A stretch of 60,139 nucleotides of DNA, filler included, from Candidatus Woesearchaeota archaeon (lineage in GTDB: Archaea; Nanobdellota; Nanobdellia; Woesearchaeales; GCA-2685855), in assembly GCA_002685855.1 (NCBI GenBank). It is 5 parts of 5 records of this genome, joined end to end, with 100 filler letters (N's around TTAATTAATTAA, not from the genome) between each part and the next. Parts side by side here need not be neighbours in the genome. Positions count along the whole stretch, not along the records: positions 1 to 18,862 come from NYYS01000040.1; 4 more parts are not named here. The stretch is one strand, 5' to 3'. Shown piece after piece: positions 654 through 18,862 of the stretch; positions within the stretch are counted from its first letter, which is position 1; every line of letters starts with the position of its first letter. Made by a program: the position numbers and the translations under genes. A model generated the notes under the pieces. That model made no database searches. It was not told the DNA's origin and worked only from the letters and a program-made list of their open reading frames with translations.

Positions 654-971
654 ATGTTAACTACAACCACAGACTTTATACCAGGATCAAAGATTACAGA
701 AACCCTGGGAATTGTAAAGGGAAATACGATCCGGGCAAAGCACATTGGAAGAGATATTATGGCTGGCCTGAAGCACCTTGTGGGAGGTGAGCTGAAAGGG
801 TATACAGAGATGATTAATGAATCCAGGGAGCAGGCCATACAGAGAATGTGTGATGAAGCGACACAGATGAAGGCTGATGCAGTAATCAATGTGCGCTTTA
901 TCACAGCAGAAGTAATGCAGGGTGCAGCAGAAGTTCTTGCCTATGGAACAGCAGTGAAGCTTTCCAAGTAG
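654..971 (+). CDS. YbjQ/UPF0145 heavy-metal-binding family protein
   Basis: GRDIMAGLKHLVGGELKGY, ADAVINVRF and AYGTAV signature. Confidence 0.9.
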   Translation: MLTTTTDFIPGSKITETLGIVKGNTIRAKHIGRDIMAGLKHLVGGELKGYTEMINESREQAIQRMCDEATQMKADAVINVRFITAEVMQGAAEVLAYGTAVKLSK

Positions 972-973
972 GA

Positions 974-1618: not shown

Positions 1619-1746
1619 GAAACTGGCAATTGTGAGCAGTATAAAAAACTTAGTATAGTAGCTCCTATTGTTAAATAGAATGGAAACCTTTATTAATTAT
1701 AGGAGAAAGACAAGCTTGTGTGCAGGGCTTGACAATGGTATAGAAA

Positions 1747-2700: not shown

Positions 2701-2711
2701 AGAGGTGTGGT

Positions 2712-3905
2712 ATGAATAAAAATATTAGAGATGAATTCCCTTTTTTGCAGAAGAAGATCAAAGGTATGGATCCTGTTTATCTTGATAGTGCCTGTATGAG
2801 TCTCCGTCCTCAGCCTGTTATCGATGCTGTTAACAGCTACTATCAGGAGTTTCCAGGCTGCGGCGGCAGGAGTATGCACAAGGTTGGAAGAAGGGTTGAT
2901 GAAGAGGTAATAAAGGCACGTTTATCTATGAAGAAATTCTTAGGAGCCAAATCTGAAAAGGAGATTATCTTTACAAAAAACACTACTGAGGCCATTAATC
3001 TTGTTGCAAATAGTCTTTCTTTGTCGAAGACTGTATTGACTACAGACAAAGAGCACAATTCTAATCTTGTTCCCTGGCAACTGCTTTCAAAGAGGAAAGG
3101 AGTTACCCACAAGATTATTCCTTCTAAAGATGACAATACTTTTGATCTTGAGGCATTTGAGGAGATGATGAGTCCTGATGTTGAGCTTGTCTCTGTTGTG
3201 CACACCTCTAATCTGGACGGTGTAACCTATCCATTAAAGGAGATCTGCAAGATTGCACACGATCATGGTGCATTGGTGATGGCAGATGCTGCACAGAGTG
3301 TTCCCTCAATGGAGTTGGATGTTCGTAAGCTTGATGTTGATCTTTTGGCCTGTTCAGGTCATAAGATGTGCGGTCCTTCTGGGACAGGAATCCTATATGG
3401 AAAGGAGGCAGTACTGGAAAAATTGAGCCCGTTTCTTGTTGGAGGAGATACAGTTCATGAAACAACCTATACTGATCATGAGTTTGATGATCTGCCCGAA
3501 CGGTTTGAAGCAGGCCTTCAGAACTATGCAGGTATTATCGGCCTGGGAGCTGCTGCCTGTTTTTTAGAGGGTGTTGGGAAAAGCAATATTCTTTCGCATG
3601 AACAAAATCTGAATAAACGCATTAGTGCACAGATCGAGGATGATGTGAAGATTATTGGTCCACGTGCAGAGGAACGTTCAGGCATTATCAGTTTTGTTCC
3701 AAAAGGAGATGTTCATCAGGTTGCTCTTTTATTAGATGAAACGAGCAACATCATGGTAAGAAGTGGTGCGCATTGTGTACATAGCTGGTTTAATGCAAGA
3801 AAGATCGATGGAAGTGTTCGTGCAAGCTGTTATCTGTATACTACTGCTGAAGAGGCCGATTTTTTTGCTGAAAAGTTAAAGGAGGTGATACAACTCGTAA
3901 AGTAA
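2712..3905 (+). CDS. sufS: Cysteine desulfurase, SufS/CsdA group II
   Basis: YLDSAC, EHNSN, SGHKMCGP (PLP Lys), RSGAHC; GAGGTG RBS. Confidence 0.85.
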   Translation: MNKNIRDEFPFLQKKIKGMDPVYLDSACMSLRPQPVIDAVNSYYQEFPGCGGRSMHKVGRRVDEEVIKARLSMKKFLGAKSEKEIIFTKNTTEAINLVANSLSLSKTVLTTDKEHNSNLVPWQLLSKRKGVTHKIIPSKDDNTFDLEAFEEMMSPDVELVSVVHTSNLDGVTYPLKEICKIAHDHGALVMADAAQSVPSMELDVRKLDVDLLACSGHKMCGPSGTGILYGKEAVLEKLSPFLVGGDTVHETTYTDHEFDDLPERFEAGLQNYAGIIGLGAAACFLEGVGKSNILSHEQNLNKRISAQIEDDVKIIGPRAEERSGIISFVPKGDVHQVALLLDETSNIMVRSGAHCVHSWFNARKIDGSVRASCYLYTTAEEADFFAEKLKEVIQLVK

Positions 3906-3956
3906 TGACCTATCTGTAAGGGGATGTGTGTGGTACTGAACCTAAGAGGTGGTCAA

Positions 3957-4661
3957 ATGAAGAAAGAAGATATGGTAATTGGAATTGTTGTTTTACAAGC
4001 AGTTTTGCTTTTAGTTCTTTTAGTACAGACGTGGAATATTAAGGGAAATATTGATGAGATTTCTTTGAATGGTGCGGTTGTGAACGAGTTAGCCGGACCA
4101 GGTGAGAGAGTAGCTCAACCCCCTCCTCCAAGCCCAACAGTCGATGTAAGTGTTGATGATGATCCGATGAAAGGGAAGAAGAATGCGCCAGTGACAATTA
4201 TTGAGTTTAGTGATTTTCAGTGCCCGTATTGTAAAAAGGTTTTTTCTGAGACCCTTCCTTTGCTGGAAAAAGAGTATATTGACACAGGAAAGGTGAAGTT
4301 TGTGTATAGGGATTATCCATTGCCCTTTCACCCATTGGCGCAGAAGACTGCTGAGGCTGCTGAATGTGCAGATGAACAGGTAAAGTTCTGGGAATACCAT
4401 GATACGATCTTTGAAAACCAGGATTCATTGAGTGTAGAGAACCTGAAGAGTTGGGCACAGGATCTTGGATTGGATAGTGAAGAGTTTGACCAGTGTCTGG
4501 ATTCAGGAGAGATGGCTTCTGAAGTAAAGAAAGATATGGAAGAAGGCCAGAAATATGGTGTGAGAGGAACTCCAGCATTTTTTATTAATGGAAAGCTGTT
4601 GAGTGGTGCTCAGCCCTATGTTGCATTTCAGAGAGAGATCGAAGCGGCTTTGCAGAACTAG
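3957..4661 (+). CDS. DsbA-family thiol-disulfide oxidoreductase
   Basis: EFSDFQCPYC, GVRGTPAFFING, N-terminal TM; start moved to the ATG after GAGGTG. Confidence 0.9.
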   Translation: MKKEDMVIGIVVLQAVLLLVLLVQTWNIKGNIDEISLNGAVVNELAGPGERVAQPPPPSPTVDVSVDDDPMKGKKNAPVTIIEFSDFQCPYCKKVFSETLPLLEKEYIDTGKVKFVYRDYPLPFHPLAQKTAEAAECADEQVKFWEYHDTIFENQDSLSVENLKSWAQDLGLDSEEFDQCLDSGEMASEVKKDMEEGQKYGVRGTPAFFINGKLLSGAQPYVAFQREIEAALQN

Positions 4662-4662
4662 G

Positions 4663-4701
4663 TTACTCTTCTTTTTTAGAAGGGTTCTTTTTTTTCTTTT
4701 T
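4663..4701. terminator. T-rich stretch between convergent genes (putative archaeal terminator)
   Basis: ctcttcttttttagaagggttctttttttttctttttt. Confidence 0.5.
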
Positions 4702-7401
4702 TTACCAAGTCAGATACCTTTCCACAAAAGAGTTCTTTCTTCTCAGAAGGTAGCGTCTGAGTTCATCACCAAATAAAATGAGTAATGCGAAGGGCACAGA
4801 TAGAGAGAGTTCAAATAAGGATAGAGGTGCAGTTCCGAAAAGCGCTTGAAACGAAGGAAGGTAAAGGATCATGCATAACAGGATAATTTCTACAGCTATT
4901 CCAAGCCAGACCATCTTGTTTTTGAAGAATCCAGTAAATACCGATTGTCTTCGTTTTCTGCAGATGAGTACGTCTGCTATTTGGCAGATGATGATACTTG
5001 CAAAGAATGCGCTGACTGCTTTCAGGTAAAGTGGGTTGTTGAATGCGAGTGGTTGTCCCCAGATCCAGCCGCCTTTGAAAAGGATAAAGAAAAAGGAGAA
5101 GAATCCTGCTGCTGCCTGGATCATGCCCACAAGCCCATAGGATATGCCAAGGAGTTGTTTTGTGAGCAGACGTTCCTTTCTTGATCGCGGTTTTTTCTTC
5201 ATGACATCTGTTTCGGGTTGTTCTGTTCCCAGCCCTATTGCTGGAAGGATGTCTGTTCCGAGATCGATTGAAAGGATAAGAACAACGGTTAAGGGAAGGG
5301 GGATCTGAAGAAGGATGAATGCAAGGAAGGGCAGGATCTCTGGTACGTTGCTAGTGAGGATGTAGGCAATGAACTTTTTGATGTTTTCAAAGATTGTTCT
5401 GCCTTCTTCAACTGCTGAGACAATGGTTGCAAAGTTATCATCCATTAATACCATGTCGCTTGCTTCTCGTGCCACCTCTGTTCCTGAGATGCCCATGGAT
5501 ACTCCCATGTCTGCATTTTTTAATGCAGGGGCATCATTTACTCCGTCCCCTGTTACAGTTACAACTTCGTTCATGGCTTGCAGGGTTTGTACGATTCGAA
5601 GTTTCTGGAGGGGGTTGGTTCGTGCAAAGATTATTTCCTCTTTTTTTAGAATTTCCTGAAGTTCTGCATCTTCCATTTTTTGGAGTTCTTCTCCTTCTAC
5701 GATTGCTGCATGCTTATTCACAAGTCCCACTTTCCGTGCTATAGCCTCTGCTGTGAGACGATGATCTCCTGTTATCATGATAACCTTTATACCTGCTGTT
5801 TTACATTTCTGGAGTGCTTCAGGTATCTCTTTGCGAGGAGGGTCGACCATTCCTGCCAGGCCAATAAAAAGAAATCCTTTTTCGGTAGGCTCGTCTGCTT
5901 TTGTTTCTTTCAGGGCGAATGCAAGAACGCGTTCTCCACGGGATGCCATCTTTGCATAATACTTTTTTATTTGGTTACGATCTTTTTTTGTGAGTTTTTT
6001 CTTCTTTTTTCCTGAGAAATACCCTGTGCACATTTTTAGCACGACTTCAGGTGCACCTTTGAGATAAGAGATCTTTTTTCTGCCGCTTTTGTGGGTAGTA
6101 ATCATTCTTTTTGTCTGTGAGTCAAACGGACATTCGTGGATGCGTTTCTCTTTTTTGATAAGTGTGGAAATTGTTGTGTAGAGTTGGGAAAAGTCAAGAA
6201 GAGCAGTCTCAGTGGGGTCGCCGCTAAATCCCTTTCCTTTAGGATGTTTTCGGGCGTTGTTACAAAGCGTCATTGCCTTTAGAAGAGATTCAAAGCCTTT
6301 TGTTTTTGCAAGATGTTTTTCATAGACATTTTTTTCTTCAAATTCAAGAAAGAGGGTGTTAAGTGCCATTTTGTTCTGTGTCAAGGTTCCTGTCTTGTCT
6401 GTGCATATTACTGTTGTTGATCCTAAGGTTTCTACTGATTCTAGGTTTTTGATAAGTGCCTTTTTTTTAGCCATGCGTTTTGACGCAAGGGAGAGACACA
6501 ATGTTACTGTCGGTAAAAGTCCTTCAGGAACATTTGCAACAATTATTCCTATAGCAAAGATAAGGCTGCCGATCTTGCTGTGGCCTATGATAAGGCTTAT
6601 AACAAAGAAGAGCGCTCCAAGGACAAGAGCGATCGAGGATATTATTTTGATAAAGTGTTTTATCTCTTTTTGCAAGGGGGTTTGTACATCGTGTGTTTCT
6701 TTTGTAAGAGAGACGATCTTTCCCATCTGGGTGTTCATTCCTGTTCCATGCACAAGGGCTGTTCCGTTTCCAGACTGTACAAGTGTTCCTGAAAAGAGCA
6801 TGTTTCTGCTTTCCAGTATATTCTTATGGGTTTGTTCCAGCTTTCGGAGTTGGGGTTCTGATTCTCCTGTGATTACGGAATGGTCTACCTTCATAAGATT
6901 CTGTTCGATGAGACGGGCGTCGGCCGGGATCTTGTCACCTTCTGAGAGAAAGATGATATCTCCAGGAACAAGCTCTTTTGTTGAGATTTCTGTTCGTTTC
7001 TTGTTTCGTAGAACAGATACATTGGCAGGCATCATCTTTTTGAAACTTTCCATGATACGTTCTGATTGGTATTCCTGAATAAATGTAAAGGTTGCATTGA
7101 GGAATACAACGATCACCAAGGCTATTCCGATGTAGATATTTCCTTCGCCCGGTCTGATCGACTCTGCCAGAAAGGCAAGTCCTGCTCCTACTAATAGGAG
7201 AAGTGCAAAGAAGTTTGTGAACTGTTTCAGGTAGCGGAAGATGAGAGGGATATTCTTTTTTGTTTCCAGAATATTAGGTCCATAGTTGGCTATGCGTTTT
7301 TCTGCTTCTTCCTGTCCAAGTCCTTTTTTCGAACTTCCCAGACGTTGATAGAGCTCTGATAGGCTGAGACTATGTTCGTCCCCTTTCCCTACTGCATACA
7401 T
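4702..7401 (-). CDS. Cation-transporting P-type ATPase, P2C (Na+/K+-ATPase-like)
   Basis: TGES, IVANVPEGL, DKTGTLT, KGAPE, GDGVNDAPAL, YILTSNVPEILPF, IDLGTD. Confidence 0.9.
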   Translation of the reverse strand: MYAVGKGDEHSLSLSELYQRLGSSKKGLGQEEAEKRIANYGPNILETKKNIPLIFRYLKQFTNFFALLLLVGAGLAFLAESIRPGEGNIYIGIALVIVVFLNATFTFIQEYQSERIMESFKKMMPANVSVLRNKKRTEISTKELVPGDIIFLSEGDKIPADARLIEQNLMKVDHSVITGESEPQLRKLEQTHKNILESRNMLFSGTLVQSGNGTALVHGTGMNTQMGKIVSLTKETHDVQTPLQKEIKHFIKIISSIALVLGALFFVISLIIGHSKIGSLIFAIGIIVANVPEGLLPTVTLCLSLASKRMAKKKALIKNLESVETLGSTTVICTDKTGTLTQNKMALNTLFLEFEEKNVYEKHLAKTKGFESLLKAMTLCNNARKHPKGKGFSGDPTETALLDFSQLYTTISTLIKKEKRIHECPFDSQTKRMITTHKSGRKKISYLKGAPEVVLKMCTGYFSGKKKKKLTKKDRNQIKKYYAKMASRGERVLAFALKETKADEPTEKGFLFIGLAGMVDPPRKEIPEALQKCKTAGIKVIMITGDHRLTAEAIARKVGLVNKHAAIVEGEELQKMEDAELQEILKKEEIIFARTNPLQKLRIVQTLQAMNEVVTVTGDGVNDAPALKNADMGVSMGISGTEVAREASDMVLMDDNFATIVSAVEEGRTIFENIKKFIAYILTSNVPEILPFLAFILLQIPLPLTVVLILSIDLGTDILPAIGLGTEQPETDVMKKKPRSRKERLLTKQLLGISYGLVGMIQAAAGFFSFFFILFKGGWIWGQPLAFNNPLYLKAVSAFFASIIICQIADVLICRKRRQSVFTGFFKNKMVWLGIAVEIILLCMILYLPSFQALFGTAPLSLFELSLSVPFALLILFGDELRRYLLRRKNSFVERYLTW

Positions 7402-7569
7402 TAGCTATTTTTGATCGTTCTCCTTTTTAAAGTAGATTGTTGGTGGGAGAGAGGAAACAGGTATAAGAGAATTATTTACCATATTGAAAATAACCTGTTT
7501 AAAAATACACTTTTTAATCAAAAAGAAAGATTTAAATAAAAGTAGGACTTGTACTACTTAGGTGAAATC

Positions 7570-7797
7570 ATGCAACTTAGTGTAAAAGATGTGGATGCCT
7601 CTGTATTCAAGGAGTTTAAGGCAGAGTCTGTTAGAGACGGGTTAAAGATAGGAAAGGGTTTAACCCTGGCCATGGAGTTCTGGCTCAGGAATAAGAATCA
7701 AAAAAAGAAGGCAAGCATTCTGGATTTTGAACCAAGCTTGTGGGAGAAGGAAACAGCCAAGGTAAGCGAAAAGCTTGATGATGTGGTGTACGAATAA
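7570..7797 (+). CDS. Putative VapB-type antitoxin (RHH-like)
   Basis: Small protein after GGTGA RBS; stop overlaps PIN gene start (TAATG). Confidence 0.7.
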   Translation: MQLSVKDVDASVFKEFKAESVRDGLKIGKGLTLAMEFWLRNKNQKKKASILDFEPSLWEKETAKVSEKLDDVVYE

Positions 7798-8201
7798 TGG
7801 CTGTTCTGATCGATGCAAGTATCTTCTGTGCATTTGCAAATAGGAGAGATATTCATCATGAAAAGGCAAAAAGGATCCTAGAAGAAATTATCTCAGAGAG
7901 GTACGGAACACCTCTCACAACAGATTATATTGTCGATGAAACACTGACAGTTATTCAAAGAAAAAGCTGTCATGAAGAGGCTGTTCGGTTTGGAAAACAC
8001 CTCTTCAATTCAGAAATTACTGTTCTCCAGTTGTCTCAAGCAATTTTTCAGGAGGCCTGGAAGATCTTTCAGAGGCAGAAAGGATTAAGCTTTACAGATT
8101 GTACCCTTGTAGCGAGTATGGAGAGCTTGGGAATTCAGAAGATCGCTACATTTGATAAAGCATTCAAAAACATCGACAAAATTGAGGCTATAGATTCGTA
8201 G
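7797..8201 (+). CDS. vapC: VapC/PIN-domain ribonuclease toxin
   Basis: VLIDAS, IVDETL, LSFTDC, IATFDKAF acidic PIN motifs. Confidence 0.9.
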   Translation: MAVLIDASIFCAFANRRDIHHEKAKRILEEIISERYGTPLTTDYIVDETLTVIQRKSCHEEAVRFGKHLFNSEITVLQLSQAIFQEAWKIFQRQKGLSFTDCTLVASMESLGIQKIATFDKAFKNIDKIEAIDS

Positions 8202-8250
8202 GCACCCTAAACCCCCAAAAGTTTATATTGCCTTTCACCTTTCGTTTCCT

Positions 8251-8655
8251 ATGAAGAAAGTCATGGTCTTTGGAAGTTTTGATCCGTTGCATAAAGGACA
8301 TAGAAATCTGTTCCAGCAGGCCAAGAAACAGGGAGAATATCTTATTGTTGTAGTTGCCCGTGATGAGACCATCCGTCTTCTCAAAAAGCACGAACCCAGC
8401 CAGCCCGAAGAGGTTCGACGAAAAAGGGTCGAAGAAGTAGCTGAGGTCGATAGCGCTGTTTTGGGAAACCCAGGTGACAAGTATGCCATTATACAGCAGC
8501 ATCGTCCGGACATCATCTGTCTTGGATATGATCAATCATTCTTTGTAGAGAACCTCCAGAAACAGCTAGACAAATTCCAATTGCCTGTAAAAATTGTACG
8601 TCTTCTTCCCCATCACCCGGACAGGTTTAAGAGCAGTAAGTTAAGAAAAGAATAA
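8251..8655 (+). CDS. ribL: Archaeal FAD synthetase / cytidylyltransferase family
   Basis: FGSFDPLHKGH, VVVARD, PDIICLGYDQ, KSSK. Confidence 0.75.
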   Translation: MKKVMVFGSFDPLHKGHRNLFQQAKKQGEYLIVVVARDETIRLLKKHEPSQPEEVRRKRVEEVAEVDSAVLGNPGDKYAIIQQHRPDIICLGYDQSFFVENLQKQLDKFQLPVKIVRLLPHHPDRFKSSKLRKE

Positions 8656-8663
8656 GTATGCAG

Positions 8664-9119
8664 TCATTCTGTTTCATTTGCTAATCTTTCTAACTCTTCT
8701 ATTGTTCGAGAATCGAGTCTCTGGAGTCTCCAAGCATAACGAGCAAGCTTCGCATATCCTTCAATCAGATATTTGATTTTAGTTAGTCCTGTTTCAACTT
8801 CTTTCGTCACAGGAAGACATATTAGCTCACATCGAGCTTCCATTGCCCAGGGCTTTATCTTTTGAAGATACTCTTCTAAGGTTGCCCTATCAGGAGAAGA
8901 AACCGCATCTCCGCAACGCGAAGAGAACTTTTCTAATACATCATCGATAATACCTGAATCTTCATGAAGAGAGGTTAACTCACCTCTTCCCCTAATTTCA
9001 CTTTTCGTTCGTTCATCAAAGCAATAATCAAAAGCATTTTTCTCAATATCTCTCGGAACCTGTTTATAGGGACTTACAGGGGCTTCAACTTTTTGATCGC
9101 GTGCAGCATAAACTTCCAT
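8664..9119 (-). CDS. Hypothetical protein
   Basis: 151-aa ORF filling the gap, co-oriented with the nrd operon. Confidence 0.6.
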   Translation of the reverse strand: MEVYAARDQKVEAPVSPYKQVPRDIEKNAFDYCFDERTKSEIRGRGELTSLHEDSGIIDDVLEKFSSRCGDAVSSPDRATLEEYLQKIKPWAMEARCELICLPVTKEVETGLTKIKYLIEGYAKLARYAWRLQRLDSRTIEELERLANETE

Positions 9120-9138
9120 GAATTCAGGAAAGAGGCTA

Positions 9139-9582
9139 CTACCGTATCTTCTTTATCTCTGCTTTTAACTCCTTCAGATTCTCTATGGTTTTGTAGACAG
9201 AAGCAAAGCGGATGTAGGCCATTTCATCCACTTTTTTCAGGCGTGTGAGAACAACATCTCCTATGAGTTTGGATTTTACAAAGGCAATCTGTTTTTTCTT
9301 GATGCGTTTTTCTATGTCTGTGGCAATCTTGTTCATCTGTTCTTCTGTTACAGGACGTTTTTCACAGGCAATCTGTATTCCTTTGAGTATCTTCTTTTTG
9401 TCAAACGGTTCTTTTCTGCCATCTTTCTTTAATACCGTAATAAAGTCCACTCTTACCTTTTCATAGGTTGTGAAACGCTGTTCGCATTTTTGGCAGGCCC
9501 TTCTTCTTCGATTGATGCCTTCCTGGGTTTCTCGTTTATCGATAACCTTTGATTCAGGGTATTGGCAATAGGGGCACCTCAT
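9139..9582 (-). CDS. nrdR: Transcriptional repressor NrdR
   Basis: CPYC...RRRRACQKC..RFTTYE zinc ribbon, ATP cone, AYIRFASVY. Confidence 0.95.
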   Translation of the reverse strand: MRCPYCQYPESKVIDKRETQEGINRRRRACQKCEQRFTTYEKVRVDFITVLKKDGRKEPFDKKKILKGIQIACEKRPVTEEQMNKIATDIEKRIKKKQIAFVKSKLIGDVVLTRLKKVDEMAYIRFASVYKTIENLKELKAEIKKIR

Positions 9583-9586
9583 TGGT

Positions 9587-9862
9587 TCACCTCAGGACAA
9601 ATGCGACAATGAACTTGTAGAGAAACCAGGCCACAGCTATCCATGTAAGGGTCCAGGCTGCTCCGAATAGCATCATGATTAGGTAGATTCCCAACACCAT
9701 GTCTATCATGCTCATGAAGTCTCCTCTGTAAAACCATCCTTTTCCAAGAAGGTATGCTGCTCCTCCGAGCAATGCACGCCAGCTGTCGAGCAATCCTAGA
9801 TGGGTTCCCACCATTGTTACGAGGACGAAGAGGTCTGCTATGTGAAAGAGCCATACGATCAT
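9587..9862 (-). CDS. Small hypothetical membrane protein
   Basis: Hydrophobic 91-aa ORF within the operon. Confidence 0.65.
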   Translation of the reverse strand: MIVWLFHIADLFVLVTMVGTHLGLLDSWRALLGGAAYLLGKGWFYRGDFMSMIDMVLGIYLIMMLFGAAWTLTWIAVAWFLYKFIVAFVLR

Positions 9863-9899
9863 TTTCTCTGTACCTTTGTGTTAGGAGTGGGTTCATCTT

Positions 9900-10430
9900 T
9901 TAATATTCGATCCCTATTCTGGCCTGAATTCCTTTTATATAAGGATGTCTGATGAGCTGCATTTCCGTGAGATAATCAGCCATCTCTTTGATTGTTTCAG
10001 GAATATCTCTTCCAGTGAGGATGAGTTCTGTTTTTTCGGGTTTGGTCTGGATAAACTTTGAGAGCAGTTCTTCTTCACAGATTTTCCAGGAAAGAGCCGG
10101 ACCGATCTCGTCGAGGACAACAAGATCAAAATCTCCCTTTACAACTGTTTCAACTTCGGTTTCCCAGAAGGTGAGAAACTCTTTTTGGACATCCTGGAAT
10201 TCCAGATCTGTATAGTCTTTAAAGAAGGGATGGAGCGGAACAAACTGTTTGTATGCAATTCCAAGTTGGTCGAATACTTTTTTTTCACCAGTGTTGCGTT
10301 TGAAGAACTGGATGATCTTTACTTTGAGTCCTCTTCCGTGTGCCCTTAGGGCAAGACCCATAGAGCTTGTTGTTTTTCCCTTTCCATCTCCTGTGTAGAC
10401 GTGTACACAGCCAGGTTGGTAGTGTTTCAT
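9900..10430 (-). CDS. cobO: Cob(I)alamin adenosyltransferase (CobA/CobO/BtuR)
   Basis: YTGDGKGKTT, LVVLDE, ELILTGR, HPY..G..AR.GIEY. Confidence 0.92.
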   Translation of the reverse strand: MKHYQPGCVHVYTGDGKGKTTSSMGLALRAHGRGLKVKIIQFFKRNTGEKKVFDQLGIAYKQFVPLHPFFKDYTDLEFQDVQKEFLTFWETEVETVVKGDFDLVVLDEIGPALSWKICEEELLSKFIQTKPEKTELILTGRDIPETIKEMADYLTEMQLIRHPYIKGIQARIGIEY

Positions 10431-10435
10431 ACGGT

Positions 10436-12949
10436 TTAACTACACTTACTGTAGCCACAATCGAAACAGGTGGGTTCACTGCATCCCGAAACCATTTCTA
10501 CATTTGATGAAAAACAGGTTGGACAGTATATTTTGTCATCCTTTTTCTTGATTCCTTCTTTGTGAAGTGTTGTCTGACCATTGGTTTGGGTGAAGTGTCC
10601 TGTTTCTACAAGGTGATCTTTTAGCACTTTGGCAACTGCATGCGGAATACTATCTACGCGTTTTGGACCAAATCCAAACGGTTTGTCTCCTTTGATGCTG
10701 TTAAGGTGTTTGAGTAATGCTTTTGGGTCTCCGTTCTGCTCTAAGTATTTGCTTAGCATGATTCCCAGTGATGTGCAGAGTCCGCTGATCTCTGTTCCTG
10801 CAGGGCTGATGTTCATGAATATCTGTAGAGGGCCTTCGTCATCGTAGTTGATGTGAACATGGAGCGGTCCCTGTCCTGTATTGATTTTGTAGTAGCGGCT
10901 GTTTTTTGCCTCTCTTTCCTGTTGTGGTTGAGATGTTTCTTTTGATTTTTTGTCTGTCAGGTTGAGGATCTGGAACTGTTTGCTTCCATCCCTATATATT
11001 GTCACACCTTTTGCTCCCAGCTCATAGGCTTTGAGGTATACTTTGCGAACATCCTCTATGGTTGCTTCGTTTCTCAGATTTACTGTTTTGCTTACAGCAT
11101 TGTCTATATACTTCTGGAATCCGCATTGCATCTTGACATGATCAAAGGGGTCCAGGTCATGGCTTGTCAGAAAGAGATTCTGGATCTCTTCAGGTATTTC
11201 AGCTATTCCTTTTACTGCTTTGTGGTTTTCATCGATCTTTTTCCAGAGCTCTTCTGGGCTGAGACCAAAGAAGTTGTGTTTTCGTGCAATCTCCTTGAAT
11301 AAGGGATTTACTTCCCAGAACGTGTTTTCCGGATCAGGTGTTTCTCCTCTTTTTAATGCATCTATTCCTGCAGCATTATACCGGACATAGGCGATTGCAA
11401 AAAAGGGTTCAATTCCTGTACCCTGAAGTCCTGCAGTGATCCCTATAGTTCCTGTGGGTGCAATCGTTGTACGTGTGCTATTGCGGGGAACTGCTGATTT
11501 ACCTCTAAAGAATTTTCCATCTTTATCATAGATGCTGTCGTTGTAGTTGGGGAACGCTCCTCGTTCTGTGGCAAGTTCTTCACTTAACTTTAATGCATTT
11601 CCATTTATGAATTTCATGACTTCCTCTGCCTTTTTGAAAGCATCTTCTGTGTTGTAGGGTATTCCTAATTTTACAAGGGTTTCTGCCCAGCCCATCACTC
11701 CCAGACCTATTCTTCTGTTGATTTTTGACATATACTCTATCTTGGGCAGGGGATAGTTGTTTACATCGATAACGTCGTCCAGAAATCGGGTTGATATTTT
11801 TACACATTCCTGCAATTCGTCCCAGAGCATGTCTGATCCGTCTTCTTTGACAAACTTTGAGAGGTTGATGCTTCCCAGATTACAGGGTTCATAGGGCAAA
11901 AGTGGTTGTTCCCCGCATGGGTTAGTGGATTCGATCTGGCCCATGTTGGGTGTGGGGTTGCTTTCTGTGTTGTTGATTCTGTCCAGTACAACAAAGCCCG
12001 GATCTCCTGTTCTCCAGGCGTTCTCTACCATTTTTTCAAAAACATCTCGTGCATTAAGAGCTCCTTCAGGTTCCTTTGTGCGTGGATTAAGGAGATCATA
12101 CTTTTTGTTCTCTTTTACTGCTTTCATAAATACTTCATCAAGTGCTACAGAGATATTGAAGTTTTCTAATATTCCTGGTGTGTTTTTTGCTTCGATGAAT
12201 TCAAGGATGTTTGGATGGGTGCAATGAAGGATTCCCATGTTAGCTCCTCTTCGGGTTCCTCCTTGTTTTACAACATCTGTGGACTTATCAAAGATCCCCA
12301 TAAAACTTACAGGTCCTGAACTAACACCGTGGGTTGTTTTTACAACGTCGTTTGTAGGACGGAGACGGGAAAAAGAGAATCCTGTTCCTCCTCCTGATTT
12401 GTGAATGACTGCCATATTTTTTACAGAATCATAGATCTCTTCTATGCTGTCACCCACAGGCAGGACATAGCATGCAGAGAGTTGCTGGAGGTCACGGCCC
12501 GCATTCATGAGTGTTGGGCTGTTTGGTAGGAATTGCCAGGTTGACAGGATTTTGTAGAACTGTGCTTTTGTTTCCTGGAAGCGTTGCATGATATTAGGGT
12601 TGTGTTTTGCTACCTCTGCAAGGTTTTCAAGGAATTTTTTAAAGTTCTTTCCTCGTTCACCATAGCTTAATCCTTGATGTAGAAGATAATATTTGTGTTT
12701 TTTTCCTTTTACTTCATAGGTGTATATTTGGTAGCTGACACCTTTGAATATCTCGTCTTCCCTTGCTTCAGGATGATGGAGAATTTCGGTTAATGCGACA
12801 TTTTGGGCTACACCCATAAGCCAATGTTGTGCTGTAGGGCTTGCTTTCAAGTACTTGTCTTTGATTACTTTACGTTGGTTCTCTGTAATGTCTAGTTCTC
12901 CGAGGTCACGTTCCTCAAACATGAGCTCGGCCTTATTTGATCCTTTCAT
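10436..12949 (-). CDS. nrdJ: Class II adenosylcobalamin-dependent ribonucleotide reductase
   Basis: PNSPTLMNAG, TNPCGEQ, CNLGSINL, TIAPTG, KGVTIYRDGS, C-terminal CxxC/CGYSKC; ATG at 12949 after GAGGTG. Confidence 0.95.
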   Translation of the reverse strand: MKGSNKAELMFEERDLGELDITENQRKVIKDKYLKASPTAQHWLMGVAQNVALTEILHHPEAREDEIFKGVSYQIYTYEVKGKKHKYYLLHQGLSYGERGKNFKKFLENLAEVAKHNPNIMQRFQETKAQFYKILSTWQFLPNSPTLMNAGRDLQQLSACYVLPVGDSIEEIYDSVKNMAVIHKSGGGTGFSFSRLRPTNDVVKTTHGVSSGPVSFMGIFDKSTDVVKQGGTRRGANMGILHCTHPNILEFIEAKNTPGILENFNISVALDEVFMKAVKENKKYDLLNPRTKEPEGALNARDVFEKMVENAWRTGDPGFVVLDRINNTESNPTPNMGQIESTNPCGEQPLLPYEPCNLGSINLSKFVKEDGSDMLWDELQECVKISTRFLDDVIDVNNYPLPKIEYMSKINRRIGLGVMGWAETLVKLGIPYNTEDAFKKAEEVMKFINGNALKLSEELATERGAFPNYNDSIYDKDGKFFRGKSAVPRNSTRTTIAPTGTIGITAGLQGTGIEPFFAIAYVRYNAAGIDALKRGETPDPENTFWEVNPLFKEIARKHNFFGLSPEELWKKIDENHKAVKGIAEIPEEIQNLFLTSHDLDPFDHVKMQCGFQKYIDNAVSKTVNLRNEATIEDVRKVYLKAYELGAKGVTIYRDGSKQFQILNLTDKKSKETSQPQQEREAKNSRYYKINTGQGPLHVHINYDDEGPLQIFMNISPAGTEISGLCTSLGIMLSKYLEQNGDPKALLKHLNSIKGDKPFGFGPKRVDSIPHAVAKVLKDHLVETGHFTQTNGQTTLHKEGIKKKDDKIYCPTCFSSNVEMVSGCSEPTCFDCGYSKCS

Positions 12950-12984
12950 ACACACACCTCATATATCAACCAAAAAGATAAAAC

Positions 12985-13032
12985 ACACAACATATTGTGT
13001 GTTGATCGATCCACACACAGCATATCTTGATA
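12985..13032. promoter_or_regulatory. Tandem NrdR boxes upstream of nrdJ
   Basis: ACACAACATATTGTGT (12985-13000) closely matches acaCwAtATaTwGtgt; weaker ACAGCATATCTTGATA (13017-13032) starts 32 bp away. Confidence 0.8.
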
Positions 13033-13239
13033 TGCCCATAATATTAAGCAAGAACTTCTTTAAATGTATTGTTGTTCTAAAAAAAGTAAAATGAAACCTA
13101 TAGATAAGAAAACACATCAATTAAAAAGTGATGTTAAAGGGTATGGAAAAAAATTCAATTCGGGAGGATACCTACTTTATTCAGGCACGAATTGAATAAA
13201 AAACACAACTTTTTTAATATGCTCCCACTTTCAGCAAGA

Positions 13240-13488
13240 ATGGCGTATGTTGTTGAACATGATCGACCGAACTGCATTGGCTGTGGTTCCTGCTGTGTTA
13301 TTGCCGAAGGCTTCTGGGAGCTTGACGATGATGGCAAAGCGAATATAACTAAGGCTGAACAGCTGAAGAATGGCCAGCAACGGCTCGAAATAAAGGATAA
13401 AGATCTGGAAATTATGAAAGATGCAGCAGAATCCTGTCCTGTTAATGTGATTCATATTAAGGATAAGACAGGCAAGAGTATTGTCTAA
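13240..13488 (+). CDS. Single-cluster [4Fe-4S] ferredoxin
   Basis: CIGCGSC...CPVNVI. Confidence 0.85.
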   Translation: MAYVVEHDRPNCIGCGSCCVIAEGFWELDDDGKANITKAEQLKNGQQRLEIKDKDLEIMKDAAESCPVNVIHIKDKTGKSIV

Positions 13489-13489
13489 G

Positions 13490-14002
13490 ATGGAGTTTGC
13501 AACACGTTCTAATCTAGAAGAATCACTCGAAGACGAGGAAGCTAAGGAAAAAACTCTTTCTTATTTTGAGGAAACAAAGGCCTGGCAGGAGCATAAGAAA
13601 AAGCATAAGAATGCAAATCTTCATCTGGTTGAAGAAAAAGAGGAGCTCTTTCATAGGGAACAAACAGAATCTGGTCTGAGGAGAGATCAGGAGGAGACAC
13701 CTCGCCCAAAGGAGGAGATAGTGGAAGAAGAGGAGGCTCATGAAAAGGAACACAAGGTGATGAAGGCAGGTTGTGGATGTGGTGAGTTTCAGATGGCAAT
13801 CAACTCAGAGAAAAGAACTGCCTACACAATTGGAGGGGAAGAGGATAGCCCTGAAGAGAAGATCTATGGGATGAGTGGTCCTGAACCAGAAAGGGAGGAC
13901 AGATTATACAAAGGGCCAGATGGTGGAGAGAAGGAAGAGGGCGGTACAGGCGATCTCTACAACCGTGAGGCAGGTGCAGCAGGAAGTAAGCTGTATAAGT
14001 GA
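13490..14002 (+). CDS. Acidic hypothetical protein with GCGCG motif
   Basis: Starts 1 nt after the ferredoxin stop; Glu-rich. Confidence 0.65.
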   Translation: MEFATRSNLEESLEDEEAKEKTLSYFEETKAWQEHKKKHKNANLHLVEEKEELFHREQTESGLRRDQEETPRPKEEIVEEEEAHEKEHKVMKAGCGCGEFQMAINSEKRTAYTIGGEEDSPEEKIYGMSGPEPEREDRLYKGPDGGEKEEGGTGDLYNREAGAAGSKLYK

Positions 14003-15739
14003 TCAGCCTTCCTGGGAGAGCATCACCTTAGGGGCAATTGAAGCATCCTTTGATTTGCCATTTGGCAGGATCATGTTCTTCATATTTGAATAGACCTTTT
14101 TCGCGATAAGTCCAGGACTTACAAGTTTAAACATATAGGGAATGTTTAACGGATCTGTTAGTGCAAGAACACCGTATTCTTTGAGTACAAAGCGGGGAAA
14201 GTTAAAGTCCTCTAGTGCTTCAGGTACATAGACACGCTCTCCGCCAGAATAGTTTTTTGGGAGAAGGCCTTCCTCGATCTTCCCTTCGGCTACAAGTTCG
14301 TCGTAGATAGGGGTTCCAGGGAGAGGTTGAAAGTTGTTGAGGAAAAAGAAGTTAAATTTACATTTTCGTATCAGGTCTACGGTCTTTTGAAGATCTTCAG
14401 GTGTTTCTCCAGGATAACCTATGATAAAGAAGCCATGTACTTTGAGTCCTGCATCTTTTATCTCTTGGACCTTGTCAGGGATGATATCAGGATCAAGATC
14501 CTTCCTCATTCGTTTGAGTGTTTCCTTTGATCCAGACTCAGGCGCCACAATAAGGTTCTCCCATCCTGCAAGTTTCATGAGGCTTAGGAGTTCGGTATCT
14601 GTTCTCTGTAGCCTAATCCCGTTTGGTGTTCCAAATCTGAGATCAGGAAGGTTGAGCTTTATCATTTCATTGCAGAACTCTTTTGCATAGTCCATATGAA
14701 AAGTAAAGTTGTCGTCGATAATATTGATCATGCGAATGCCTTTTTCGTGGTAGAGGTATTTTACCCAATCAACCATGTATTTTATAGAATGTTTTCGTAT
14801 TAACCGTCCATTCTGTAAGGGTGCTGAGCAGAACGAGCAGCGATAGGGACAGCCTCGTGTTATCCAGACAGGGGCATTCATTTTGTAGGGGGTGTTAAAG
14901 CGGTATCCTTGTTGGATATATGCATGAAGATTCATTGCATCATAGTCAGGTATGTTTATTGCGTCGAGTTTTCTTTCTCTCTCCATCTCGTTCTTTACTA
15001 TTTCGGTTGGTGATGTTCGATAGACAAGCCCGAGTACTTTAGTGAAATCAGGAGATTTTTTCTCTAGTTGTTCCAGAAAGAGCGGGAAGGAAAGTTCGGC
15101 TTCACCTCTAAAGACAAAGTCGACTTCAGGGTTTTTCATGATGGGATCAGGATAGGAGGAAGCGTGTGCACCACCCATTACAGTTAGTACCTGTTTATGC
15201 AGGGGAGTTATCTGGATTTGTGTTCCGTCGTAGTCTATAGTTGTTCCCTGAATATGCAGAAGATTGTAGTTACTGATACAGATTTTTATGCCATGCGCAG
15301 TGAAGCAGTGTTCTCCTGAATAGGGTTTTTGTGTAAAACTGAATTGTAGTGTAGATTTCTGTGTGTGAGGAAGTGCGCATTCGATGTGAAGGACTGCGTT
15401 TGAATAGCCTTCTTGTTTCATGAATTCTTTGAACTTCTCTGCAGCTTTTTTTGTAAGGATAATCTCTTTTGTGTTCGTGTGAAGGTTTTTTGCTAATTGA
15501 AGAACGTCACAGGCTTCCTGATAGGTTGGACTCCAGCAGGATACTCCGACAATGTCAGGATCAAACTCCTTGAGGAGCTCTTTAAACTCCTCTGAATCTG
15601 CAGGGAGATCATCAAGAGCATTGTCAAAGATTCTGACTTCATGTTTTTTCAGATCAAGGTTGCTTTTCAGATAGCCCATAGAGAGGGGCATGACATATTC
15701 TGTATCAAACCCTTTTGGCCAAACAAGAGCGATTTTCAT
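14003..15739 (-). CDS. Cobalamin-binding radical SAM protein with inserted HesB-like domain
   Basis: PLSMGYL, GGAHAS, GEAE, RGCPYRCSFC, DDNF, ESGS, FFIIGYPGET. Confidence 0.9.
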   Translation of the reverse strand: MKIALVWPKGFDTEYVMPLSMGYLKSNLDLKKHEVRIFDNALDDLPADSEEFKELLKEFDPDIVGVSCWSPTYQEACDVLQLAKNLHTNTKEIILTKKAAEKFKEFMKQEGYSNAVLHIECALPHTQKSTLQFSFTQKPYSGEHCFTAHGIKICISNYNLLHIQGTTIDYDGTQIQITPLHKQVLTVMGGAHASSYPDPIMKNPEVDFVFRGEAELSFPLFLEQLEKKSPDFTKVLGLVYRTSPTEIVKNEMERERKLDAINIPDYDAMNLHAYIQQGYRFNTPYKMNAPVWITRGCPYRCSFCSAPLQNGRLIRKHSIKYMVDWVKYLYHEKGIRMINIIDDNFTFHMDYAKEFCNEMIKLNLPDLRFGTPNGIRLQRTDTELLSLMKLAGWENLIVAPESGSKETLKRMRKDLDPDIIPDKVQEIKDAGLKVHGFFIIGYPGETPEDLQKTVDLIRKCKFNFFFLNNFQPLPGTPIYDELVAEGKIEEGLLPKNYSGGERVYVPEALEDFNFPRFVLKEYGVLALTDPLNIPYMFKLVSPGLIAKKVYSNMKNMILPNGKSKDASIAPKVMLSQEG

Positions 15740-15760
15740 AAGAGGATGAATCCCAGATCG

Positions 15761-15850
15761 TTTATAAATATTCTGTTGACTGGAAAAAGAGGATTTGTTT
15801 ATAAATAGTTTATAAAGAGTTAGAGGGTACTTAAAGATAATATTTATAAA
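15761..15850. promoter_or_regulatory. Divergent archaeal promoter region with four TTTATAAA boxes
   Basis: TTTATAAA at 15761, 15798, 15809 and 15843 between divergent genes. Confidence 0.6.
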
Positions 15851-15899
15851 AGCAAAACAGCTTCTGAAGAAAGATTCGGAGGATTCTTTTGAAAAAAAA

Positions 15900-17057
15900 A
15901 TGAAAGAGATCTACCTTGATTATGCTGCTGCAACTCCCCTTGATCCGCGTGTCCTGAAGGAGATGGATCCCTTCCTACACAGGAAGTTTGGGAATCCCTC
16001 TAGTTTTCATGCTCCGGGCCTGGAAGCTAAGGATGCGCTTGATCAGGCCAGAATCAGGGTTGCTTCTCTGCTTCATTGTGAACCTACAGAGATCATCTTT
16101 ACAGGAAGTGGAACAGAGTCGATCAATCTTGCTCTGAAAGGATGTGCACGGGTTCGAAAAAAGAAAGGGAATCATATAATTACAACCGCTGTAGAACACG
16201 AGGCGGTTCTGAAAAGTCTGTCCTATCTTGAGGAAAAGGAAGGAGTTCATGTTACCATTCTTCCAGTAGACTGTTATGGTAGAATATCTCTCTCTGCTAT
16301 TGAAAAGGCCATTACTAAAAAAACCATCCTGATCAGCATCATCTTTGCCAATAATGAGATCGGTACACTCAACCCTATTGAAAAGATAGCAAGGATTGCA
16401 AAGAAGAGGAAGATTGCTTTCCATACCGATGCCTGTCAGGCAGCGGCGAGCCAATCACTTGACGTAAAAAAACTTGGGGTTGATCTCCTAAGCATCAATG
16501 CAGCAAAGATCTCTGGTCCGAAAGGCGTCGGGCTCCTCTATAAACGAAAAGATGTGCAAATAGATCCTGTTGTTCATGGCGGGGGGCAGGAGTGGGAACT
16601 GCGTGCAGGAACAGAGAATGTTGCAGGAATTGTTGGATTCGCTAAAGCACTTGAACTTGCACAGGAAGAAAAAGTGAAAGAGACCCCTAGACTCGAAAAG
16701 CTTCGGGATAAACTCAGTACCACTATTTTAACAAAAATTCCCAACTGTAAACTGAATGGAGACCCAAAAAACCGCCTGCCAAATAATGTTAATATTAGTT
16801 TCAGAGATATCGATGCCGAAGAGCTACTGCTTTTATTAAATAAGGAGAAGATCTATGCCAGCAGCGGGAGTGCATGCGCTACCCACACCTCTGAAAAAAG
16901 TCATGTTCTTACAGCGATAGGTATTCCAGAGAGCTATGCAAAAGGAACAATTCGTTTCAGCCTTGGTAAAGAAACAACAGATACAGATATTGATAAGGTA
17001 ATTTCAGTTTTAGAAAAAAGCGTGAATCAACTCCGCCAGAAGAGGTATACCCCATGA
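15900..17057 (+). CDS. iscS: Cysteine desulfurase, IscS/NifS group I
   Basis: YLDYAAATP, NNEIG, FHTDACQ, RAGTEN, SSGSAC. Confidence 0.92.
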   Translation: MKEIYLDYAAATPLDPRVLKEMDPFLHRKFGNPSSFHAPGLEAKDALDQARIRVASLLHCEPTEIIFTGSGTESINLALKGCARVRKKKGNHIITTAVEHEAVLKSLSYLEEKEGVHVTILPVDCYGRISLSAIEKAITKKTILISIIFANNEIGTLNPIEKIARIAKKRKIAFHTDACQAAASQSLDVKKLGVDLLSINAAKISGPKGVGLLYKRKDVQIDPVVHGGGQEWELRAGTENVAGIVGFAKALELAQEEKVKETPRLEKLRDKLSTTILTKIPNCKLNGDPKNRLPNNVNISFRDIDAEELLLLLNKEKIYASSGSACATHTSEKSHVLTAIGIPESYAKGTIRFSLGKETTDTDIDKVISVLEKSVNQLRQKRYTP

Positions 17058-17644
17058 AAAAAAACACTCAAAAAAAGATTGTAAAAATTACAAAAAAGAT
17101 GGCCATCGCAGATATCATCTCACGCCATCCTGAAGCTGCCGAGATTCTGCTCAGCAGAGGACTCCACTGCGTGGGCTGTCAGGCCTCTGCCTTTGAAAAC
17201 CTTGAAGAAGGAGCGATGGCACACGGCATGTCAGACAAGGAAATTGATGAAATCGTAGACCAAATCAATAAAGAGCTGGGGGAGAAGGAAAACAGTTCAA
17301 AAAGCATAACAATCACAAAAAAAGGAGCTGCAAAGTTCCTCGAACTCATGAAAAAAGAAGGTAAATCGCAATCCGCATTACGCATCGAGATAGTACCTGG
17401 AGGATGCGCAGGCATGAACTACAAGTTTAGTTTTGTTAATGGTGAGCCTGCTCCCAAAGAAGAAAGAATTGTGGCTCACGGCCTAACAGTTTTCATTAAC
17501 AACAAAGATCAGAAGCTCCTTGAAGGAGCCACAATAGATTATGTGGAGAGTTTAGACGGATCTGGGTTTTCTGTTAAAAATCCCAATGCAAAAAGTGTGT
17601 GCGGATGTGGTGATTCGTCTAGTCAGTTGGGAAAGAAAGAATAG
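17054..17644 (+). CDS. DUF1858-like domain fused to HesB/IscA A-type Fe-S carrier
   Basis: GLHCVGC in the N-terminal domain; GGCAG...NPNAKSVCGCG in the C-terminal domain. Confidence 0.85.
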   Translation: MKKNTQKKIVKITKKMAIADIISRHPEAAEILLSRGLHCVGCQASAFENLEEGAMAHGMSDKEIDEIVDQINKELGEKENSSKSITITKKGAAKFLELMKKEGKSQSALRIEIVPGGCAGMNYKFSFVNGEPAPKEERIVAHGLTVFINNKDQKLLEGATIDYVESLDGSGFSVKNPNAKSVCGCGDSSSQLGKKE

Positions 17645-17673
17645 AGATCATAAAAGAGTGATAGTAAAGAAAG

Positions 17674-17925
17674 ATGGGAAAGAAATATAGGATAACCTAC
17701 GACCGAAGTGCATGTATTGGTGCAATGGCCTGTGCAGAGATTCTTCCAAAACGGTGGAAAATGACCCAGGATAAGGAGAAGGCAGATCTTGTTAAAGGGA
17801 AACAAATTGATATAGAGGATGATGTTTGGGAACTCGTTATTGATGAAGGCGATTATTCAGAGGACCTTCTTGCTGCAGAGGCCTGTCCGGTCTTTGCAAT
17901 AAAAATTGAGGAGATTACTGATTAA
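17674..17925 (+). CDS. Ferredoxin ([3Fe-4S]-type)
   Basis: CIGAMAC...CPVFAI. Confidence 0.85.
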   Translation: MGKKYRITYDRSACIGAMACAEILPKRWKMTQDKEKADLVKGKQIDIEDDVWELVIDEGDYSEDLLAAEACPVFAIKIEEITD

Positions 17926-17926
17926 G

Positions 17927-18184
17927 ATGGGGAAAAAATTTAAGATAATCTATGATCGAAAGGCGTGCATTGGAGCTGCTGCCTGTGCTGCTGTTGATAA
18001 TGAGCGTTGGGAGATTGCTGAGGATGGTAAGGCCGATCTTATCAAAGGAGAAAAGAGTGGAGATTCTGATGTGTGGGAACGTGTCATTGATGAAGACCTT
18101 GTTGAGATCAGTCGTGAAGCTGCAGACAGCTGTCCTGTTGGATGTATCAGAGTAGAGGAAATCGAAGAAGATTCTTCAGAATAA
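17927..18184 (+). CDS. Ferredoxin ([3Fe-4S]-type), tandem paralog
   Basis: MGKKFKIIYDRKACIGAAAC...CPVGCI. Confidence 0.85.
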   Translation: MGKKFKIIYDRKACIGAAACAAVDNERWEIAEDGKADLIKGEKSGDSDVWERVIDEDLVEISREAADSCPVGCIRVEEIEEDSSE

Positions 18185-18267
18185 TTCCGATTTTTTCTCG
18201 TGACAATTGATTTTTTATTCAAACAAATACCAATTATTATAAATAAACTCTTTATAATCATAAAAGA

Positions 18268-18531
18268 ATGTACTCTTTCACCACACGCAGCAAGAAAGCA
18301 GAGAAACAGTTCTACGAGGTAATCAAACAACGCAAAGGGATCAAAGAAAAGCTCCAAGAACTACAAAAAGATCCTCATAAGAAACTCGATGCCCATAAAC
18401 TCAAAGGAAAACTAGCTGGCAAATGGAGCTGTTATTTAGGAGGAGATATCAGACTCGTTTATGAAATTGATAACGAGAAAAAGGAAATAATTGTTTGCGC
18501 AGCAGGTTCACACAAACAATCTTACACTTGA
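18268..18531 (+). CDS. RelE/YafQ-family mRNA interferase toxin
   Basis: HKLKGKLAGKWSCYLGGDIRLVYEI...GSH. Confidence 0.85.
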   Translation: MYSFTTRSKKAEKQFYEVIKQRKGIKEKLQELQKDPHKKLDAHKLKGKLAGKWSCYLGGDIRLVYEIDNEKKEIIVCAAGSHKQSYT

Positions 18532-18674
18532 AGCTTCCATGTTTTAATATCCTTCTTTTTAGCTTCATCACTTTCTTCAATGGCCCCTATCATGTCCTGA
18601 TTATGCAATATACCAACCTCTTCCAAAAGATGTTCATATTCTTGTTTGGGAATTGTTACCATTTCCTGTGCCAT
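18522..18674 (-). CDS. Putative 50-aa antitoxin (YefM/Phd C-terminal-like), not in the ORF track
   Basis: Manual translation MAQEMVTIPKQEYEHLLEEVGILHNQDMIGAIEESDEAKKKDIKTWKLQV*; TATA-like box about 25 nt upstream. Confidence 0.7.
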   Translation of the reverse strand: MAQEMVTIPKQEYEHLLEEVGILHNQDMIGAIEESDEAKKKDIKTWKLQV

Positions 18675-18800
18675 GTTGATTTGTAGTGATTTCAACTTTA
18701 TAAAAGTTCACTTTATTCTTTATAAAGTAGGATCTACCTCAAGAAAGCAGTTAAACAAATACGATTAGCATTAATTTCCATATGGAAGTTTTACCGCTTC

Positions 18801-18841
18801 GGGCCTCCCTCCGGCCTAAAGGCCGGAGTACCTACCGGCCC
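18801..18841. repeat. GC-rich nested inverted repeat at the contig end
   Basis: GGGCC..CTCCGGCC-TAAA-GGCCGGAG..GGCCC. Confidence 0.7.
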
Positions 18842-18862
18842 TCACGTCCAAACCTGTTTAGC

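Follow-up and report, generated by a model that had tools for sequence, protein, structure and literature searches.

The gene at positions 14003..15739 (minus strand) of the window, by which we mean the whole 60,139-nucleotide stretch of DNA analysed, encodes a 578-residue B12-binding/radical SAM enzyme (P0001; PF04055, E = 4e-21; PF02310, E = 9.3e-14) whose B12-binding domain is interrupted by a degenerate A-type Fe-S carrier domain. The insert comprises 94 residues (86–179; 15203..15484, minus strand) and was delineated by BLASTP, hhalign, HMM searches and an Atlas model; it lacks the GGC loop motif, the hairpin tip and the CGCG tail. This architecture is real, rare and new, and is assembled from known parts. 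The reading that accounts for it best, which we hold with a confidence slightly short of even, is that the enzyme tolerates the insert as a passenger, which selection on the host keeps folded and which is neither a working carrier nor a dock.

Window positions 1–18862 are one contig (G000:C40) of an assembly of 953,131 bases in 66 contigs, with a completeness of 94.15%. The closest named ortholog of the enzyme comes from Candidatus Woesearchaeota, and the sequencing runs containing DNA of this locus are marine, so that the organism is presumably a DPANN archaeon of the Woesearchaeota type. From left to right, the locus consists of a class II ribonucleotide reductase/corrinoid adenosyltransferase/NrdR cluster, a ferredoxin gene, an ORF, the radical SAM gene, iscS, a DUF1858-carrier gene and two ferredoxin genes. 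The IscS/NifS-type cysteine desulfurase (15900..17057, plus strand; PF00266, E = 7.9e-85; TIGR03402, 487 bits, below the cut-off of 531) is divergent from the radical SAM gene across a gap of 160 bp, in which a scan with a model that excludes archaeal promoters found no sigma-70-type promoter. Its gene overlaps by 4 bases that of P0002 (17054..17644, plus strand), a fusion of DUF1858 with an intact A-type carrier that has the three cysteines (C118, C183 and C185), scores above cut-off for PF08984 and PF01521, and reaches 99 bits for TIGR00049 (cut-off 58.8). The locus is flanked by single-cluster ferredoxins, one at 13192..13488 (plus strand; PF13459, E = 1.1e-14) and two in tandem 3′ of the carrier gene (17674..18184, plus strand; PF13459, E = 7.1e-8 and 2.5e-14). 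The radical SAM gene faces the iscS-carrier operon, and the carrier gene is not its direct neighbour; where the first-pass annotation had described the two as divergently transcribed neighbours, the divergence stands, but the desulfurase gene lies between them.

Other genes of the contig were also noted. The class II (B12-type) ribonucleotide reductase, corrinoid adenosyltransferase and NrdR genes adjoin the locus at 9139–12955, a cluster consistent with the use of cobalamin by the organism. An acidic 173-residue ORF with a GCGCG motif (13481–14002), located between the ferredoxin and the radical SAM stop codon, gave no Pfam match above cut-off. Near the contig end, a RelE/YafQ-like ORF of the toxin-antitoxin type (18268–18700) scores 36.3 for YafQ against a cut-off of 30, most other families falling below theirs.

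Judged by its sequence, P0001 is an intact class-B-type B12/radical SAM enzyme. The radical SAM domain (PF04055, 76.3 bits; cut-off 29.5) contains the CxxxCxxC motif for the [4Fe-4S] cluster (C297/C301/C304; 14828..14851, minus strand), which is intact in the sequence and the alignment. The B12 Rossmann domain is recognized by PF02310 (51.7 bits; cut-off 32.1) in two separate stretches. The N-terminal part, residues 1–85 (15485..15739, minus strand), was assigned from PF02310 and the ortholog alignment and contains the G-x-S-x-W motif at 65–69; in the C-terminal part (15083..15202, minus strand) the PF02310 match resumes at profile positions 77–118, and GG (189–190) and GE (212–213) are invariant in the alignment. 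The cobalamin motifs described in the accessible parts of PMC9204698 are G-x-S-x on β3, GG on β4 and GE at α5, and all of them, like CxxxCxxC, are intact in P0001. At 100 columns conserved in at least 90% of 124 full-length orthologs P0001 shows no deviation, the median of the other orthologs being three. P0001 is a putative cobalamin-binding enzyme that may methylate a substrate. The nearest solved relatives are 9CCB, 6FD2, TokK and CysS; none of the named NCBIfam equivalogs (BchE, HpnJ, MgmA, Sden_1168, MiaB) was reached, the best score being 137.7 of 575 bits and all 25 shown of 35 matches lying below cut-off. Orthologs in two other genomes (G197 and G104) are found among glycan genes (a PMT-type transferase, a DegT aminotransferase, polysaccharide synthesis, a cytidylyltransferase and UDP-galactopyranose mutase), whereas that of G329 is not; a role of the enzyme family in surface-glycan tailoring may be taken as a lead.

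The insert lies in frame between helix α3 and strand β4 of the B12 domain, at the start of β4, with borders uncertain by ±2 residues. Compared with eight orthologs that are 51–73% identical, P0001 differs by a single clean gap of 94 residues at 86–179. The spacing from W69 to G189 is 25 residues in 140 of 142 aligned rows, 119 in P0001 and 120 in a second sequence, P0012. These rows comprise P0001, P0012, P0022, P0003–P0010, P0041–P0167 and four locus ORFs, with near-duplicates included; eight weak fragments (P0168–P0175), the fragment P0011 from the same genome and other cluster members were left out. The site, as judged from the topology of a parallel sheet, is presumably on the Rossmann face that points away from the corrin and the cluster.

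Several comparisons identify the fold of the insert. It aligns by BLASTP with P0002 over 36/96 identical positions (38%; E = 2e-13) and by hhalign with a 37-row carrier alignment at a probability of 98.9% (E = 2.9e-17), and its best PDB sequence match is 1NWB (E = 2.5e-4). An HMM of 37 working carriers matches only P0001 and P0012 among the 142 radical SAM rows (E about 5e-13), the next best row having E = 0.15. The excised insert stays below family cut-offs, with 20.6 bits for Pfam Fe-S_biosyn (PF01521; E = 5.5e-4; cut-off 26.3) and 32.3 bits for TIGR00049 (E = 8.9e-8; cut-off 58.8). The ESM Atlas holds a predicted model of the exact P0001 sequence (pTM 0.79, mean pLDDT 0.82), in which residues 89–181 align to a PF01521 cluster with a TM-score of 0.84 over 93 residues, and the remainder to ordinary B12/radical SAM clusters that are 460–470 residues long. 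The predicted fold of the insert is thus of the PF01521 type (IscA/ErpA/HesB). Compared with IscA, SufA, ErpA and HesB (PF01521, TIGR00049), it is alike in sequence and predicted fold, but it has no C-Xn-C-G-C, a shortened C-terminus and a four-residue deletion in the β6–β7 hairpin, scores below the cut-offs and is not a free protein.

The first-pass annotation had placed a Cys-less HesB/IscA domain at 15205–15475, between parts of a B12-binding domain that are normally adjacent. Its position, its fold and the absence of GGC and CGCG are all borne out here, and the profile check that it had proposed is strongly positive by hhalign, although the Pfam score is below cut-off. The term Cys-less applies to the ligands: the three ligand cysteines (GGC ... 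CGC) are absent from the inserts of both P0001 and P0012, but the P0001 insert has cysteines of its own (C121, C145 and C154), unconserved and with none in P0012.

The second enzyme, P0012, carries an insert at the same site. It is a 217-residue fragment from one 2265-nt contig and forms a singleton cluster. P0001 and P0012 are identical at 87/122 positions outside the insert and at 31/91 inside it (34%), so that their host domains differ by 29%, and the inserts, 94 and 95 residues long, have the identical four-residue hairpin deletion and the identical C-terminal end. When the insert columns were removed, P0001 and P0012 were sisters among 45 rows (SH-aLRT 88, with P0012 filling 25% of the columns). 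The remaining 140 rows are free of the insert, including those of G197 and G329, which encode a carrier, and only one of the nine radical SAM matches found by a profile search of G000 contains it. The search for a third insert-bearing enzyme gave none in the 120 full-length matches listed (out of 281), in 25 fragments or in 11 matches from a 50%-cluster library (three of which, P0014, P0016 and P0019, are repeat artefacts), and none in three overlapping samples of 401 genomes each, two of the order and one of the class. Searches of contigs yielded one locus without insert in genome contigs, one with a plain carrier in metagenome contigs, and one in viral contigs with a match confined to residues 1–90.

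An assembly chimera or a recent sequence accident could be suspected, as a similar carrier gene lies 1.6 kb away and shares with the insert a 47-nt stretch of 79% identity, but a chimera is refuted by P0012, which comes from another organism and has the same insert at 34% identity, and we give such an origin next to no probability. The read check proposed beforehand also came out in favour of the insert: a 1277-nt contig from run X1, possibly the source run, crosses both borders without a single difference. A 151-nt record from run X2, which belongs to another study, matches just as exactly across the N-terminal border; at the C-terminal border an X2 record extends only 9 nt beyond the insert, which was not counted. 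Independent bridging thus concerns the N-terminal border only, runs X3 and X4 lying outside the insert; none of the reads aligned to the locus joins its two flanks directly. The GC content of the insert (0.39) is like that of the rest of the gene (0.43).

The insert has kept its core and lost its cluster ligands and the residues around them. Of 25 columns that are hydrophobic in at least 85% of 36 carriers, 23 and 22 are still hydrophobic in the two inserts, whereas the near-invariant G-G-C-x-G, Y, S, L, G-F-K, N-P and C-G-C-G are lost or changed in both, and the segments replacing the Cys loop are unlike each other. The available text of PMC5471300 and PMC6006206 describes a cluster pocket between protomers, built by the first-Cys loop and the C-terminal segment, and a β1–β6–β7 sheet. 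Given this sheet, the ends of the shortened domain would lie together. With the Cys loop and the C-terminal segment lost, the insert can hardly serve as a carrier, and it no longer has the stretches associated with the cluster-bridged interface. The β6–β7 hairpin, which contributes to carrier dimer contacts too, is shortened. The best-kept element between the two inserts is helix α1, with 9/13 identical residues, surface K/E included, against 22/78 elsewhere; it is also well conserved in ordinary carriers. The Kimura distance between P0001 and P0012 is 1.37 for the insert and 0.36 for the host (ratio 3.8), whereas for the one available pair, G000–G197, it is 1.07 for the working carrier and 0.58 for the host (ratio 1.8), so that the insert would evolve about twice as fast as the working carrier. 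In a neutral simulation the mean identity was 0.20 at a nucleotide distance of 1 (maximum 0.36 of 200 draws) and 0.10 at a distance of 2; the observed value of 0.34 suggests constraint if the synonymous distance exceeds 1.

The insert probably derives from the lineage's own carrier gene by local duplication, which is the best reading of its origin and is not statistically proven. In a comparison with 48 carrier domains, which contains no member of G000's own family, the best match of both inserts is P0002 (44.6 versus 40.9 bits and 41.1 versus 36.9 bits for the runners-up), although P0012 belongs to another organism. The carrier tree places the inserts as sisters (100/90) in a group that also contains P0002 and the long-branch P0018 (98/90, the bootstrap not having settled); after removal of four long rows, both inserts and P0002 form a clade with an SH-aLRT of 95. 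On the 81 shared columns, with the Cys loop and the lost parts dropped, this clade has an SH-aLRT of 65, and an alternative grouping with the Cys-less carriers of G226 and G322 is not rejected (p-AU 0.377). P0002 and both inserts have five residues in common that few or none of 38 other carriers possess (F 3%, S 0%, E 3%, A 8%, D 0%). The locally duplicated carrier domain proposed by the first-pass annotation, with a phylogeny as its check, is therefore favoured by the best matches and the full clade and left short of proof by the shared columns. A target-site duplication was rejected: although each border has a Leu-His pair, the two are encoded by different codons, and the repeat is absent from P0012. 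Foreign origin was likewise discarded, as GC (0.39 versus 0.43) gave no signal.

We consider a tolerated passenger the best explanation. The process began with one in-frame insertion into the α3–β4 loop, common to the two sister enzymes. An ancestral form of the DUF1858-carrier gene nearby was probably the source, by way of a local rearrangement beside the iscS operon. The piece would stop just past the last core strand, which is paired in one sheet with the first, and its ends, being close together, would suit a loop on the Rossmann face opposite cobalamin. Cluster ligands and surrounding residues were lost while the hydrophobic core was retained. Partial deletion would unfold the insert and harm the host, so that the insert would be locked in, and the enzyme would be matured by the ordinary route, as its insert-free orthologs are. 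This fits a core kept at 23/25 and 22/25 positions beside near-invariant ligand-region residues lost differently in each copy, a retained predicted fold, an insert/host ratio of 3.8 against 1.8 for the single working carrier pair, dispensability in kin, including carrier-encoding G197 and G329, an untouched host (0/100 conserved columns) and the restriction to one of nine radical SAM matches. Several observations fit it less well. The inserts have near-equal lengths in two lineages with hosts 29% different, in a genome of 0.95 Mb; their 31/91 identity exceeds a neutral mean of 20% or less at nucleotide distances of at least 1 (maximum 0.36 in 200 draws at a distance of 1); helix α1 is kept best, down to surface K/E; the gene still faces the iscS-carrier operon, whereas the orthologs of G197 and G104 sit among glycan genes; and NfuA, in the available text of PMC8593673, shows that a Cys-less A-type domain can be required for binding.

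The gap between this explanation and the next is small. The insert may instead act as a built-in dock: by binding P0002 (or IscS) it would keep the donor at the enzyme, whose [4Fe-4S] cluster could then be loaded or repaired preferentially; by analogy with NfuA we regard this as possible though doubtful. Such a docking site is what the first-pass annotation had proposed, with delivery by a carrier that oligomerises, and docking by oligomerisation of the carrier kind has so far found no support in the sequences. In vivo, NfuA requires its degenerate A-type domain, which targets apo-proteins (PMC8593673, as far as its text was available), and an ErpA–NfuA heteromer exists (accessible parts of PMC8593673 and PMC9585516). 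The residues rare in 38 other carriers that both inserts share with P0002 would suit such a dock, but are equally explicable by ancestry; the divergent linkage to the iscS-carrier operon also speaks for it. On the other hand, both inserts have lost the Cys loop, hairpin tip and C-terminal tail that make up the cluster-bridged interface and differ from each other in these parts, the insertion site would point away from the cofactors, and the host has one cluster motif, with no auxiliary cluster known to be consumed. Moreover, the eight other radical SAM matches of G000 have no insert, and 140/142 orthologs work without it.

The Fe-S assembly context of the organism bears on the dock. In G000 (94% complete) no match to NifU_N/IscU, SufB/D, Nfu, Mrp/ApbC or SufT was found, with positive controls; a lack of these proteins would place a greater demand on the carrier. 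Among the carrier-bearing relatives at least 90% complete, 78 of 95 being surveyed for scaffolds, NifU_N is present in 66/78 and SufBD in 71/78, and only G317 (90% complete) is without both. Three genomes of the order (G226, G322 and G367) have the order iscS–iscU–DUF1858/carrier, whereas G000 has no iscU between iscS and the carrier gene, the two genes overlapping. These data offer a lead to a scaffold-less Fe-S system in G000, or to a sufCB on a missing contig. It is unlikely, in our estimate, that the insert is the client enzyme's own docking hook, copied from the carrier in a reduced archaeon with IscS and an A-type protein only and no IscU/SufB scaffold.

Other features of Fe-S assembly were noted in the window and in relatives. 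A second, SufS-type cysteine desulfurase lies at window positions 2712–3905, between two thioredoxin/DsbA-like genes and with no suf genes nearby. PF01521 was found in 96/401 genomes of the order, in a scan that overlooked the G000 insert itself and is no test for inserts. DUF1858–A-type fusions, of which P0002 is one, occur elsewhere in the order; in G226 and G322 (L052:2006-2281 and L053:1994-2272) the A-type domain of a DUF1858-carrier has neither GGC nor CGC. These domains are independently Cys-less, yet they belong to separate proteins in iscS–iscU operons, unlike the P0001 insert, and their genomes are without SufB. Their layout is NfuA-like, with the C-x-x-C-type motif of DUF1858 as the candidate ligand; a similar 183-residue DUF1858 cluster comes from Peregrinibacteriota. 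A metagenome contig of 12234 nt (L021) has a plain carrier gene beside ORFs that by eye are PCNA-like, primase-like and integrase-like, which suggests that a virus or mobile element has an A-type carrier among its genes. In seven contigs (G093:C11, G015:C10, G272:C14, G357:C32, G068:C40, G311:C12 and G115:C5) the match to SufB is split inside an open frame of 667–1609 residues, which suggests inteins in SufB.

The insert could also be a repurposed binding module unrelated to carrier docking, its α1 face binding a flanking ferredoxin, a protein substrate or another molecule of the same enzyme; we consider this reading improbable. In its favour, proteins are bound by A-type folds in general, the locus has three ferredoxin genes on its flanks, and α1 is conserved at 9/13 against 22/78 positions elsewhere; since α1 is well conserved in ordinary carriers too, its conservation may be structural, and the 140/142 rows without insert have no need of such a module. 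A new metal site formed by C121, C145, C154, H125, H144, H149 and H162 would make use of the three Cys and several His of the P0001 insert, but none of the Cys is kept in P0012, only H149 is common to both, and the Cys sit in strand columns hydrophobic across the family, so we consider it very improbable.

The architecture has parallels in parts only. OxsB, TsrM, TokK (PDB 7KDX), CysS (9N1B) and PDB 9CCB likewise begin with a B12 Rossmann domain, which bears G-x-S-x, GG and GE and precedes a CxxxCxxC barrel. Described cobalamin-dependent radical SAM enzymes vary by extra N- or C-terminal domains (accessible parts of PMC9204698), and none of those seen has a domain inserted within the B12 domain. 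NfuA resembles the insert in keeping the A-type fold without cluster ligands, fused to another domain, and serves a radical SAM enzyme, LipA (available text of PMC8593673 and PMC9585516). In NfuA, the degenerate domain is on the donor and finds targets, whereas in P0001 it is inside the client enzyme, where it splits a domain; the C-terminal Nfu (CxxC) fusion typical of NfuA has no counterpart, as PF01106 matches neither P0001 nor G000. Vinella 2009 counts 192 truncated or fused PF01521 proteins and, in the sections available, names NfuA alone, its table giving accessions with architectures not shown (PMC2682760); fusions go unmentioned in the available sections of PMC7144353. Listings from full-text searches of the open-access literature yielded no account of a radical SAM enzyme that contains a PF01521 domain, in agreement with the annotator's remark that this architecture was not known from described proteins.

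The insert architecture is represented by two known sequences only, which makes it a curiosity with a clear experiment rather than the discovery of a system. P0001, with insert, and P0022, without, are about 72% identical outside the insert and form a natural pair for measuring the effect of a client-borne degenerate A-type domain on cluster loading. How Fe-S carriers find their many clients is an open question (PMC8593673, in the text available). If docking is true, the insert would represent a new targeting principle, in which cofactor delivery is addressed by the client and not the donor, and could guide the design of ways to mature B12/radical SAM enzymes in foreign hosts. If the insert is a passenger, it would be a domain insertion caught near its source gene, and would reveal a B12-domain loop that tolerates a 94-residue domain.
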